This document shows, piece by piece, positions 44,952 to 52,017 of a stretch of 64,000 nt of DNA. The notes beneath the pieces were generated by a model. The model saw only the letters and a program-made list of their open reading frames with translations. It did no database searches and was not told the origin of the DNA. The translations under genes and the position numbers were made by a program. This DNA is from Escherichia coli (lineage in GTDB: Bacteria; Pseudomonadota; Gammaproteobacteria; Enterobacterales; Enterobacteriaceae): NCBI RefSeq assembly GCF_003790525.1, contig NZ_CP033635.1. One strand, given 5' to 3'. Within the stretch, counting starts at the first letter, position 1; each line of letters starts with the position of its first letter.

Positions 44952-45028
<77 letters not shown>

Positions 45029-45150
45029 CTTTCCCTTAGAGTCCTTTTTCAAATATACTGTGAAGACTTCGGCCTTCGTAGTGGGATTTGAAAAAATCCT
45101 TCTGGAAAGTGCTCCAGACCGCAGTTGCGGTTATAGGGTTCAGTTATATA

Positions 45151-45175
45151 AAGCCCCGATTTATCGGGGTTTTTT
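45151..45175 (+). terminator. hairpin plus T-run between metY and rimP (partial terminator/processing site)
   Basis: aagccccga-ttta-tcggggtt followed by TTTTT; a second weaker hairpin plus T7 lies at about 45199..45217. Confidence 0.6.
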
Positions 45176-45234
45176 GTTATCTGACTACAGAATAACTGGG
45201 CTTTAGGCCCTTTTTTTATGTCTTGGGGGTGGGC

Positions 45235-47202: not shown

Positions 47203-47226
47203 TAAACTGTAGCAGGAAGGAACAGC

Positions 47227-49899
47227 ATGACAGATGTAACGATTAAAACGCTGGCCGCAGAGCGACAGACCTCCGTGGAACGCCTGGTACAGCAATTTGC
47301 TGATGCAGGTATCCGGAAGTCTGCTGACGACTCTGTGTCTGCACAAGAGAAACAGACTTTGATTGACCACCTGAATCAGAAAAATTCAGGCCCGGACAAA
47401 TTGACGCTGCAACGTAAAACACGCAGCACCCTTAACATTCCTGGTACCGGTGGAAAAAGCAAATCGGTACAAATCGAAGTCCGCAAGAAACGCACCTTTG
47501 TGAAACGCGATCCGCAAGAGGCTGAACGCCTTGCTGCGGAAGAGCAAGCGCAGCGTGAAGCGGAAGAGCAAGCCCGTCGTGAGGCAGAAGAATCGGCCAA
47601 ACGTGAGGCGCAACAAAAAGCTGAACGTGAGGCCGCAGAACAAGCTAAGCGTGAAGCTGCTGAACAAGCGAAACGTGAAGCTGCGGAAAAAGACAAAGTG
47701 AGCAATCAACAAGACGATATGACTAAAAACGCCCAGGCTGAAAAAGCCCGCCGTGAGCAGGAAGCTGCAGAGCTCAAGCGTAAAGCCGAAGAAGAAGCGC
47801 GTCGTAAACTCGAAGAAGAAGCACGTCGCGTTGCTGAAGAAGCACGTCGTATGGCGGAAGAAAACAAATGGACTGATAACGCGGAACCGACTGAAGATTC
47901 CAGCGATTATCACGTCACTACTTCTCAACATGCTCGCCAGGCAGAAGACGAAAGCGATCGTGAAGTCGAAGGCGGCCGTGGCCGTGGTCGTAACGCGAAA
48001 GCTGCGCGTCCGAAGAAAGGCAACAAACACGCTGAATCAAAAGCTGATCGTGAAGAAGCACGCGCAGCAGTACGTGGCGGTAAAGGCGGAAAACGTAAAG
48101 GTTCTTCGCTGCAGCAAGGCTTCCAGAAGCCTGCTCAGGCCGTTAACCGTGACGTTGTGATCGGTGAAACCATCACCGTTGGCGAACTGGCGAACAAGAT
48201 GGCGGTTAAAGGCTCTCAGGTCATCAAAGCGATGATGAAACTGGGCGCAATGGCAACCATCAACCAGGTTATCGATCAGGAAACCGCACAGCTGGTTGCT
48301 GAAGAGATGGGCCACAAAGTTATCCTGCGTCGTGAAAACGAGCTGGAAGAAGCGGTAATGAGCGACCGTGACACGGGTGCAGCGGCTGAACCGCGCGCGC
48401 CGGTTGTGACCATCATGGGTCACGTTGACCACGGTAAAACCTCTCTGCTGGACTACATTCGTTCAACGAAAGTGGCCTCTGGCGAAGCGGGCGGCATTAC
48501 CCAGCACATTGGTGCATACCACGTTGAAACTGAAAACGGCATGATCACCTTCCTGGACACCCCGGGGCACGCCGCGTTTACTTCAATGCGTGCTCGTGGT
48601 GCGCAGGCAACGGACATCGTAGTCCTGGTTGTTGCTGCCGACGACGGCGTAATGCCGCAGACCATCGAAGCAATCCAGCACGCGAAAGCGGCGCAGGTTC
48701 CGGTGGTCGTTGCAGTGAACAAGATCGATAAACCAGAAGCCGATCCGGATCGCGTTAAGAACGAACTCTCCCAGTACGGCATCCTGCCGGAAGAGTGGGG
48801 CGGTGAAAGCCAGTTCGTACATGTGTCTGCGAAAGCGGGTACTGGTATCGATGAGCTGCTGGACGCTATCCTGCTGCAGGCGGAAGTTCTGGAACTGAAA
48901 GCGGTACGTAAAGGCATGGCGAGCGGTGCGGTTATCGAATCCTTCCTCGATAAAGGTCGTGGTCCGGTTGCTACCGTTCTGGTACGTGAAGGTACTCTGC
49001 ACAAGGGCGATATCGTTCTGTGTGGCTTCGAATACGGTCGTGTTCGTGCTATGCGTAACGAACTGGGTCGGGAAGTGCTGGAAGCGGGTCCGTCCATTCC
49101 GGTGGAAATCCTCGGCCTGTCCGGCGTTCCGGCTGCGGGTGATGAAGTTACCGTTGTACGTGACGAGAAGAAAGCGCGTGAAGTTGCACTCTATCGTCAG
49201 GGTAAATTCCGCGAAGTTAAACTGGCGCGTCAGCAGAAATCTAAACTCGAGAACATGTTCGCCAACATGACCGAAGGCGAAGTTCACGAAGTGAATATCG
49301 TCCTGAAGGCAGACGTACAGGGTTCTGTGGAAGCTATCTCCGACTCCTTGCTGAAACTGTCTACTGACGAAGTTAAAGTGAAGATCATCGGTTCTGGCGT
49401 AGGTGGTATCACCGAAACCGACGCTACCCTGGCTGCGGCGTCCAACGCCATCCTGGTTGGCTTCAACGTACGTGCTGATGCCTCTGCACGTAAAGTAATT
49501 GAAGCGGAAAGCCTGGATCTGCGTTACTACTCCGTCATCTATAACCTGATCGACGAAGTGAAAGCGGCAATGAGCGGTATGCTGTCTCCGGAACTGAAAC
49601 AACAGATTATCGGTCTGGCGGAAGTTCGTGACGTATTCAAATCACCGAAATTTGGTGCCATCGCAGGTTGTATGGTTACCGAAGGTGTGGTTAAACGTCA
49701 CAACCCGATCCGCGTTCTGCGCGACAACGTGGTTATCTACGAAGGCGAGCTGGAGTCCCTGCGCCGCTTCAAAGATGACGTTAACGAAGTCCGTAACGGT
49801 ATGGAATGTGGTATCGGCGTTAAGAACTACAACGACGTCCGCACTGGCGATGTGATCGAAGTATTCGAAATCATCGAAATCCAACGTACCATCGCTTAA
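47227..49899 (+). CDS. infB: translation initiation factor IF-2 (alpha form, 890 aa)
   Basis: G-domain motifs [18 protein letters not shown]; in-frame internal starts GTG 47698 and ATG 47719. Confidence 0.97.
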
Positions 49900-49916
49900 G
49901 GTTTTTAGGGTTCCAT

Positions 49917-49986
49917 GCGGGATAAGGCGTTTACGCCGCATCCGGCATGGATTGCCTGATGCGACGCTGGCGCGTCTTATCAGGCC
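49917..49986. repeat. REP/BIME element (two inverted REP units) in the infB-rbfA spacer
   Basis: gcgggataaggcgtttacgccgcatccggca followed by gcctgatgcgacgctggcgcgtcttatcaggcc, both classic E. coli REP consensus sequences. Confidence 0.85.
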
Positions 49987-51460: not shown

Positions 51461-51826
<366 letters not shown>

Positions 51827-51842: not shown

Positions 51843-51870
51843 AAAAGGGGGCCTGAGTGGCCCCTTTTTT
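51843..51870 (+). terminator. rpsO intrinsic terminator
   Basis: aaaa-ggggcc-tgagt-ggcccc followed by TTTTTT. Confidence 0.8.
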
Positions 51871-51920
51871 CAAGCTGACGGCAGCAATTCACTGGAAACT
51901 AATGTATTGTTGCTATGAAT

Positions 51921-52017
51921 GATCTTCCGTTGCAGAGGTTCGCGCGGCTAATGAGAGGCTTTACCCACATTGGGCTGGGTTAGGGTTGTCATTAGTCGCG
52001 AGGATGCGCAGAAGATC
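51921..52017 (+). promoter_or_regulatory. long imperfect stem in the pnp 5' leader (RNase III autoregulatory processing hairpin)
   Basis: gatcttc (51921..51927) pairs with gaagatc (52011..52017) closing an about 95-nt structured leader; function assigned from knowledge of E. coli pnp. Confidence 0.45.

Follow-up and report, generated by a model that had tools for sequence, protein, structure and literature searches.

Coding minisatellites and contingency loci, for example those of bacterial surface proteins, carry in-frame repeats whose copy number is changed by slippage, and spacers of the SAH (ER/K) type are a known class of charged single alpha-helix. The mRNA at the intracistronic initiation site of enterobacterial infB has reportedly been described as conserved and open, going by the title of Laursen et al. 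2002, Genes Cells 7:901. The infB gene of Escherichia coli is a textbook case of several protein isoforms arising from one bacterial gene, with IF2-1, IF2-2 and IF2-3 translated in tandem from AUG1, GUG158 and AUG165 (Plumbridge 1985, Nyengaard 1991 and Sacerdot 1992, as cited in 10.1101/520783 and PMC13245402). N-terminomics support GUG158 and AUG165 as the starts of IF2-2 and IF2-3 (PMC13245402), the start-codon knock-outs g474c and t494c have been made in infB, and IF2-2/3 are still produced from the del1 allele, in which just 32 nt are left in front of the IF2-2 start; sensitivity to MMS is the phenotype ascribed specifically to IF2-1 (PMC3334882). Initiating-ribosome peaks at the infB internal site have been obtained by Ribo-RET (10.1101/520783).

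We analysed this gene in a stretch of 64,000 nt of an E. coli chromosome (contig NZ_CP033635.1), hereafter the window (Table 1). The locus is infB, the familiar E. coli gene that codes for translation initiation factor IF2. Its product scores 987.7 bits against the equivalog model TIGR00487 (cut-off 424.4; residues 306-889 covered) and contains the Pfam domains IF2_N, IF2_assoc, GTP_EFTU and IF-2; the gene has the operon setting rimP-nusA-infB-rbfA; and the protein accession, WP_000133044.1, is common to this locus and K-12. All of this agrees with the gene name given in a preliminary description of this DNA. For strain 7/2, which is 100% identical, RefSeq annotates the gene order tRNA-Met, rimP, nusA, infB, rbfA, truB, rpsO, pnp. 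On the minus strand, two ORFs run antisense to the repeat tract (47376-47705 and 47386-48030); RefSeq does not annotate them, and we put them down to the tract's GAA/GCN codon composition, and an RNA family search of the infB repeat tract found no family.

The two internal start codons read in frame exactly where they had been placed (47227 + 157 × 3 and 47227 + 164 × 3). Both have been published as the starts of IF2-2 and IF2-3 (PMC13245402; PMC3334882), the knock-out positions agree with the codons here (PMC3334882), and the retapamulin peaks that had been suggested as a check on internal initiation are on record (10.1101/520783). Compared with the described E. coli tandem translation, this is the same locus with the same codon numbers, and the internal starts show no difference at all; because they are already known, confirming them adds little. 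Our own additions are a profile of conservation codon by codon and a census of variants in the repeat units.

Table 1. Coordinates of infB and of the repeat and initiation features in and around it, as positions in the 64,000-nt window.
Feature	Position	Strand	Basis or remark
infB CDS (IF2-1/alpha, 890 aa, stop included)	47227..49899	+	ORF list, translation, TIGR00487, Pfam, RefSeq annotation
Primary Shine-Dalgarno CAGGAAGGA and ATG1	47213..47229	+	strongest anti-SD pairing -6.5 kcal/mol, spaced 5 nt from the start codon
Array 1, seven imperfect 24-nt units U1-U7	47518..47685	+	TRF, repeat spacing, unit parse, lag-24 autocorrelation, strain variants
Degenerate eighth unit EKDKVSNQ, holding GTG158	47686..47709	+	in register with array 1
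Internal translation initiation region, 32 nt 5′ of GTG158 through ATG165	47666..47721	+	del1 allele, synonymous entropy, MFE
GTG, codon 158, IF2-2 (beta) start	47698..47700	+	direct sequence reading; PMC3334882, PMC13245402
ATG, codon 165, IF2-3 (gamma, beta′) start	47719..47721	+	direct sequence reading; PMC3334882, PMC13245402
Array 2, units of 24, 24, 21 and 21 nt	47779..47862	+	TRF; 3′ of the internal starts, in all three isoforms

Array 1 is a significant head-to-tail tandem repeat, far above chance. Its base identity at a lag of 24 nt is 0.661, whereas codon shuffles average 0.367 (sd 0.039) and none of 20,000 shuffles reaches 0.661; at a lag of 21 nt the identity is 0.304, which is under the codon-shuffle mean. 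At the protein level, identity is 0.607 at lag 8 and 0.105 at lag 7. TRF reports a period of 24 at 47536-47591 and at 47599-47692, and a repeat search returned successive spacings of 24, 24, 48, 24 and 24. The period is therefore 24 nt, or eight residues, and the 21-nt heptad period of the preliminary description is refuted. The repeat is real within the span to which it had been assigned (47584-47721), but array 1 begins upstream of that span, and the 23-residue repeat peptide cited for it is found at residues 133-155. The seven units encode 56 residues (about 98-153 of IF2) that are rich in Ala, Glu, Arg, Lys and Gln. U6 and U7 are the best pair, both reading EQAKREAA with three synonymous differences; no exact repeat within the array exceeds 14 nt, the length of GCGGAAGAGCAAGC at 47536 and 47560, and adjacent units have identical runs of 8-14 nt in common.

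A genuine 21-nt period is confined to array 2, downstream of the internal starts, where TRF gives a period of 24 at 47779-47828 and of 21 at 47815-47862. Array 2 also varies in length in E. coli (-21, +21 and -24 nt), the -24 alleles being clonal.

The array 1 product is predicted to lie within one continuous helix that would link the remainder of IF2 with its N-terminal IF2_N/IF2_assoc subdomain. In the AlphaFold model, a helix at 96-159 (pLDDT 85-91) is followed by a break at 160-165 (pLDDT below 50) and by a second helix at 166-217, in which array 2 lies; this is one model with an overall pTM of 0.26, its input alignment was shallow (31 close relatives), and AlphaFold readily gives long helices for charged low-complexity sequence. 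Within the 96-159 segment, 17 pairs of residues at i/i+4 are of opposite charge, and only a single Leu and a single Val occur among the 64 residues; the model suggests that the segment may serve as a helical spacer. It may resemble charged single alpha-helices in its long predicted helix, its dense i/i+4 pairing of Glu with Arg/Lys and its near lack of hydrophobic residues; unlike them, it is only 52% charged, Ala/Gln-rich and built on an 8-residue repeat. A literature search for IF2 together with charged single helices found no papers.

To take a census of tract length, we searched 5,426 complete genomes with constructed deletion and duplication alleles; the copy in Nissle (CP007799), which is flagged as a pseudogene, partial, and part of a record with three infB matches, was left out. 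Among 5,425 complete E. coli genomes we count 26 (about 0.5%) in which array 1 has changed length. This is a lower bound, because BLAST identity bands miss indels when alignments split (the ΔU2, dupU2 and array 2 -24 alleles came out as split high-identity pieces) and because the search covers the alleles that were constructed. For the same reason the contrast with non-repeat DNA is qualitative only: for a control core segment at 48400-48680 (281 nt, codons 392-485), no genome fell below 95% identity. Among the 26 genomes the change is -96 nt in one, -24 in ten, +24 in 12 and +48 in three, and the natural alleles have 3, 6, 8 and 9 units. Three of the 26 variants (N68, N10 and N25) are CSF isolates, apparently from one set; M15, OkiPb01695, BS74R-D and ETEC4077 are further variant strains.

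Copy number changes by whole units and in register, and such changes have arisen more than once. In the 25 variant loci examined, every change is an in-register multiple of 24 nt. The hybrid units show 12 distinct crossover structures, so that length-change events recur, and one protein, WP_000133053.1, is encoded by three different DNA structures. This protein is present in seven strains, and WP_000133037.1 and WP_000133055.1 are present in three each; further IF2 alleles, of 898, 883 and 882 aa, appear in an independent protein collection. Exact look-up in that collection found two of six variant proteins that we had built on the backbone of this locus; in RefSeq the variant alleles probably carry further substitutions elsewhere in the protein, such as R to Q near residue 616. 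V158 lies 66 aa from VKRD, the seven-unit form, in 68 of 81 enterobacterial loci and 74 aa from it, with one extra unit, in 10.

Both observations on which the preliminary description had staked its case, length variation among strains and a signal of internal initiation, are found. It had called the tract a known length-variable region, and the tract does gain and lose whole units between strains, but we found no paper describing such a polymorphism within E. coli, and a 1997 strain comparison by Steffensen is said to call IF2 'an extremely conserved protein' in its title. It had also suggested a possible slippage hotspot; hotspot is a relative term, and more than 99% of E. coli genomes keep seven units. 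Length variation among strains is real but rare, and unsurprising.

The start codons and their mRNA context are conserved beyond what the protein requires. GTG158 is present in all 81 enterobacterial loci and ATG165 in 73, being missing from eight. Because a control Val codon, V85, is just as fixed (GTC in 81 of 81), the weight rests on the entropy of the window of codons and not on the single codon GTG158. Synonymous entropy falls to 0.18 at codons 151-160, the minimum among the 10-codon windows of the first 325 codons (mean 0.78), so that synonymous sites there hardly vary across Enterobacterales, and is 0.39 at infB's own start; it is ordinary in U2-U6 (0.39-0.87), the constraint being limited to approximately codons 151-161 and taking in the final three codons of U7. 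The mRNA at 47660-47744 is the least structured of all that was scanned, its 50-nt MFE lying between -1.3 and -2.7 kcal/mol where the regional mean is -10.4±4.1, whereas the upstream units of array 1 are more structured (-8 to -20 kcal/mol per 50 nt). The internal initiation region is 55% A. A strong Shine-Dalgarno for the internal starts was sought and rejected, the best duplex (-3.5 to -4.1 kcal/mol) being equal to the gene-wide background of -3.3. A conserved, unstructured region across 80 Enterobacterales loci is the same kind of result as the title of Laursen et al. reportedly implies. The 48-nt internal start string and the degenerate eighth unit are both unchanged in all 25 variant loci.

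We consider the following account very probable as a whole. The feature of the preliminary description is the 3′ portion of a seven-unit, imperfect 24-nt (8-codon) array in infB that stops where the internal translation initiation region starts. GTG158 falls where the first predicted helix closes, and ATG165 falls where the low-confidence hinge 160-165 does; the short isoforms therefore lack the N-terminal subdomain and the entire predicted helix encoded by the array. Replication slippage or unequal exchange between neighbouring units that share 8-14 nt may occasionally produce the whole-unit gains and losses; the changes observed are always in frame and never reach the internal start region. 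Seven units prevail in E. coli and in most enterobacterial genera, so the length appears, as judged from frequencies, to be under purifying selection.

Several other readings were weighed against this account. That the tract is a heptad coiled coil made of 21-nt repeats, as the preliminary description had it, is almost certainly wrong: the tract is charged, Ala-rich and helical-looking, and array 2 does have a 21-nt period, but neither the bases nor the residues of array 1 repeat at the heptad lag, its 64 residues include just a single Leu and a single Val and so form no a/d hydrophobic seam, and every natural indel of array 1 is a multiple of 24 nt. We looked for a 7-residue periodicity with hydrophobic a/d positions and found neither. 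Sequencing or assembly artefacts in a tract that is in truth invariant in E. coli would account for the rarity of the variants, for three of them coming from what seems to be a single CSF isolate set and for the aberrant, pseudogene-flagged copy in the flawed Nissle assembly, and the reported title of the 1997 strain comparison fits an invariant tract. The same alleles, however, recur in different laboratories, hosts and countries under long-standing RefSeq protein ids, the changes are exact 24-nt multiples with clean hybrid units, and further variants exist in the independent protein collection. Any sequencing read covers far more than a 24-nt unit, so assembly collapse is unlikely; some variant assemblies could contain errors, but we regard this reading in general as highly improbable.

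The array could also be part of the internal initiation signal, a purine-rich standby or enhancer platform whose unit number tunes IF2-2/3 against IF2-1. It adjoins the internal starts, the 32 nt that are enough in front of GTG158 include its last unit (PMC3334882), nucleotide-level constraint reaches into U7, and with a weak Shine-Dalgarno other mRNA features must help to recruit the ribosome. We nevertheless think such a role unlikely, because synonymous constraint leaves U2-U6 untouched, IF2-2/3 are still expressed when nearly all the upstream sequence but those 32 nt is deleted (PMC3334882), the upstream units are the more structured ones, and the last 36 nt before GTG158 are unchanged in all 25 length variants. 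It is very unlikely, in our estimation, that selection uses the number of units in the predicted helix as a 'ruler' for something that only full-length IF2-1 does, such as DNA damage tolerance, replication-restart choice or growth in the cold; if it did, the recurrent ±1-unit alleles would be low-rate adaptive variants enriched in particular niches (three of the 26 variants are CSF isolates) instead of neutral or mildly harmful products of slippage.

Probable slippage in an octad array that encodes a predicted helical linker, with its length apparently held by purifying selection, is our preferred account. With coding minisatellites array 1 shares head-to-tail units, in-register whole-unit changes, hybrid units at the junctions and recurrent independent events. 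Unlike in those, the units are imperfect, with no exact match longer than 14 nt. Array 1 is not a contingency or hypervariable locus either: it lies in an essential housekeeping gene, its variation is rare and without sign of phase variation, and its unit number is conserved across genera, 68 of the 81 enterobacterial loci having the same tract length.

The feature is already known, and our addition to it is a modest one at the level of populations. One gain is a corrected description, a 24-nt octad array beginning upstream of the span first reported. The other is that an essential and otherwise highly conserved translation factor repeatedly gains and loses 8-residue units while the adjacent start signal is left untouched. 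The natural alleles of three, six, eight and nine units are ready material for probing the role of the N-terminal helix specific to IF2-1.

The infB ORF (890 codons) encodes IF-2, as the preliminary description had it. In a profile search its translated product scored 987.7 bits against TIGR00487 (cut-off 424.4), and a Pfam search of the whole protein returned IF2_N, IF2_assoc (56-94), a second IF2_N (314-364), GTP_EFTU and IF-2, with no model matching residues 95-313. E. coli strain 7/2 is 100% identical to the window over the segments compared, is annotated with the gene order tRNA-Met, rimP, nusA, infB, rbfA, truB, rpsO, pnp, and shares its infB protein accession with K-12. An Rfam scan found zero families inside infB, all matches flanking the gene.

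Features of the infB region, in window coordinates
Feature	Position	Strand	Remarks
tRNA-Met	44952-45025		Rfam
rimP leader	45117-45217		Rfam
infB ORF	47227-49899	+	890 codons, ORF listing
Antisense ORF	47376-47705	-	109 aa
Antisense ORF	47386-48030	-	214 aa
Array 1, units U1-U7	47518-47685	+	U1 EAERLAAE, U2 EQAQREAE, U3 EQARREAE, U4 ESAKREAQ, U5 QKAEREAA, U6 EQAKREAA, U7 EQAKREAA
Degenerate eighth unit U8	47686-47709	+	EKDKVSNQ; in register, holds GTG158
GTG, codon 158 (IF2-2 start)	47698-47700	+	sequence, frame arithmetic
ATG, codon 165 (IF2-3 start)	47719-47721	+	sequence, frame arithmetic
Array 2	47779-47862	+	mixed 24-nt and 21-nt units, downstream of the internal starts (Tandem Repeats Finder)
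naRNA4	49916-49986		Rfam; directly after the infB stop codon
S15 leader	51499-51613		Rfam
SraG	51843-52014	-	Rfam; antisense, between rpsO and pnp

The tract before the internal starts had been described as near-tandem 21-nt units encoding heptads. The tandem repeat is real, but its period is 24 nt. Tandem Repeats Finder reported period 24 at 47536-47591 and at 47599-47692, and a repeat search spaced the copies by 24, 24, 48, 24 and 24. Autocorrelation of 47518-47709 gave a lag-24 base identity of 0.661 versus 0.367 ± 0.039 for codon shuffles, none of 20,000 of which matched the observed value; at lag 21 the identity was 0.304, less than the shuffle mean, and the protein autocorrelation was 0.607 at lag 8 and 0.105 at lag 7. 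Because the peaks lie at lags 24 and 8, with no signal at lags 21 and 7, the units of array 1 are 24-nt octads and not 21-nt heptads. The array also starts at 47518, 66 nt upstream of the 47584 first proposed, and the peptide originally quoted occupies residues 133-155. The units of array 1 are not exact copies: U6 and U7 share their peptide but have three synonymous differences, and no exact repeat exceeds 14 nt (at 47536 and 47560). The two antisense ORFs span both arrays, are not listed in the RefSeq annotation and most probably result from the richness in GAA/GCN codons, which give no stop codons on the complementary strand.

Direct reading (47227 + 157 × 3 and 47227 + 164 × 3) and translation confirmed the placement of GTG158 and ATG165. 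These codons are the published, already known starts of the shorter isoforms: GUG158 (IF2-2) and AUG165 (IF2-3) have been named with N-terminal peptide evidence (PMC13245402), and the mutations g474c and t494c, which abolish the short isoforms, fall exactly in codons 158 and 165 (PMC3334882). A deletion that spares no more than 32 nt ahead of the IF2-2 start still expresses IF2-2/3 (PMC3334882).

We compared this region in 81 sequences, including 80 Enterobacterales loci (one genome per species). The Val158-equivalent codon was GTG in 81/81 and the Met165-equivalent codon ATG in 73/81. The eight loci without the ATG (L061, L064, L091, L068, L072, L074, L084 and L088) belong to Trabulsiella, Yokenella, Mangrovibacter and an Atlantibacter-like group, where GTG158 is also universal; from sequence, these genera may lack IF2-3 or be able to do without it. 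Because one fixed codon is nothing unusual in this alignment (the control codon V85 was GTC in 81/81), we computed synonymous-codon entropy over the codon alignment. Its mean was 0.78, and codons 151-160 gave 0.18, the minimum among windows within codons 1-325 and below the 0.39 at infB's own start; GCG153, GAA154, AAA155, AAA157, GTG158, AGC159 and CAA161 were invariant wherever the amino acid was shared.

The mRNA here, 55% A, is the least structured stretch, with 50-nt windows across 47660-47744 folding at -1.3 to -2.7 kcal/mol versus -10.4 ± 4.1 for the region. From the entropy minimum and the open mRNA, we therefore place the initiation region at about the last three U7 codons, U8 and the next few codons. 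That the whole of array 1 forms part of the signal is argued against by the upstream units U2-U6, whose synonymous variation (0.39-0.87) and mRNA structure are both ordinary. The best anti-SD pairing of the stretch was -3.5 to -4.1 kcal/mol (ATG1, -6.5), no stronger than the gene-wide background of -3.3. Internal initiation from the delimited stretch seems to depend more on the mRNA being open than on SD strength.

For length variation, a 281-nt query over the tract matched 5,425 of the 5,426 complete E. coli genomes, 17 of them at less than 95% identity. In one more, strain N68, a 96-nt in-frame deletion joins U2 to U6 (infB annotated as 858 aa). Because identity bands miss some alleles, we also searched with constructed single-unit deletion and duplication alleles, made at both U6 and U3. 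The resulting census, a lower bound, comprises 26 genomes (~0.5%), with changes of -96 nt (1), -24 nt (10), +24 nt (12) and +48 nt (3). In all 25 variant loci fetched the change was of whole units, in register, and the 48-nt string from the U7 end through ATG165 was identical. Hybrid units distinguished 12 crossover structures: deletions (ΔU2, ΔU6, U6/U7 hybrid, U5/U6 hybrid, U2/U6), duplications (U2, U6 and the hybrids U7/U6, U6/U5 and U5/U4), a two-unit U7/U5 duplication and a double duplication. The protein WP_000133053.1 (898 aa) arises from three DNA structures in seven strains from various countries and hosts, and the same structures occur on differing flanking SNP backgrounds; the events are therefore recurrent and not one lineage. 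An independent protein collection held more alleles, of 898, 883 and 882 aa. The tract had been called a known length-variable region and a possible slippage hotspot; the data support whole-unit variation and a slippage-prone tract, at a low level, and the literature searched yielded no paper on this polymorphism within E. coli.

Three of the 26 variants (-96, +24, +24) come from N68, N10 and N25 (L001, L103, L104; CM1658xx-CM1659xx), apparently one collection of CSF isolates; this clustering may reflect chance, shared ancestry of N10/N25, a niche effect or an assembly pipeline feature. One of the 5,426 genomes lacked a match to the infB segment, though the gene is essential, a plasmid record carried one match, and 2-3 matches occurred in some genomes. 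The Nissle 1917 record has three, among them a six-unit copy flagged as a partial pseudogene (L006, NZ_CP007799.1 5112472-5113028), 97% identical to E. coli -24 alleles with ~17-20 substitutions mostly in the array; this copy may be either misassembled or a duplicate that has diverged.

A 281-nt core control (48400-48680, codons 392-485) yielded no genome below 95% identity, a contrast with array 1 that is qualitative since the control rests on identity bands. The array 2 query yielded five, and constructed alleles detected -21 nt (AH21H025, AR_0149, H32), +21 nt (CMZE046) and a clonal -24 nt series of ~30 near-identical 'Esc' genomes (OZ3693xx-OZ3694xx). The 883-aa form in the large protein collection lacks VAEEARR of array 2, and the 882-aa form one KxEEEARR.

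Across genera, the VKRD motif and Val158 lie 66 residues apart in 68/81 loci, with 65 residues in two loci and 68 in a single one. In ten (Phytobacter, Kosakonia, Mangrovibacter, Atlantibacter-like) the distance was 74, exactly one unit more, so these rare differences are also whole-unit. Because seven units are strongly preferred among genera and exceed 99% within E. coli, slippage products appear to arise repeatedly yet rarely persist. L084, recorded as Citrobacter freundii strain M-21, has an infB N-terminal region unlike other Citrobacter loci, sharing the eight-unit tract, the ENSKVSNQQTDEATK motif and identical start-region DNA with Atlantibacter subterranea L088; the record may be mislabelled.

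AlphaFold2, given an alignment of 31 relatives, predicted one uninterrupted helix from 96 to 159 (pLDDT 85-91 across residues 100-150), which breaks off at 160-165 (pLDDT <50) before a second helix at 166-217; the overall pTM was 0.26 (low confidence). Helix 1 contains 18 Glu, 18 Ala, 14 Arg+Lys and 8 Gln against a single Leu and a single Val, has 17 i/i+4 pairs of opposite charge, and in this model fits better as a solvent-exposed single helix than as a coiled coil; helix prediction is easily overdone for such charged sequences. In the model the IF2-2 start falls at the C-terminal tip of helix 1 and the IF2-3 start at the beginning of helix 2; both short isoforms would thus be without the N-terminal subdomain and the entire helix 1.

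This locus, with its isoforms and internal starts, was known before and had been recognized correctly in the preliminary description. The sequence, comparative, variant and model analyses of the infB tract gave no evidence of a new mechanism. They correct the repeat to 24-nt octads in a longer array and, as a by-product, provide natural 3-, 6-, 8- and 9-unit alleles useful for the study of the IF2-1-specific N-terminal region.
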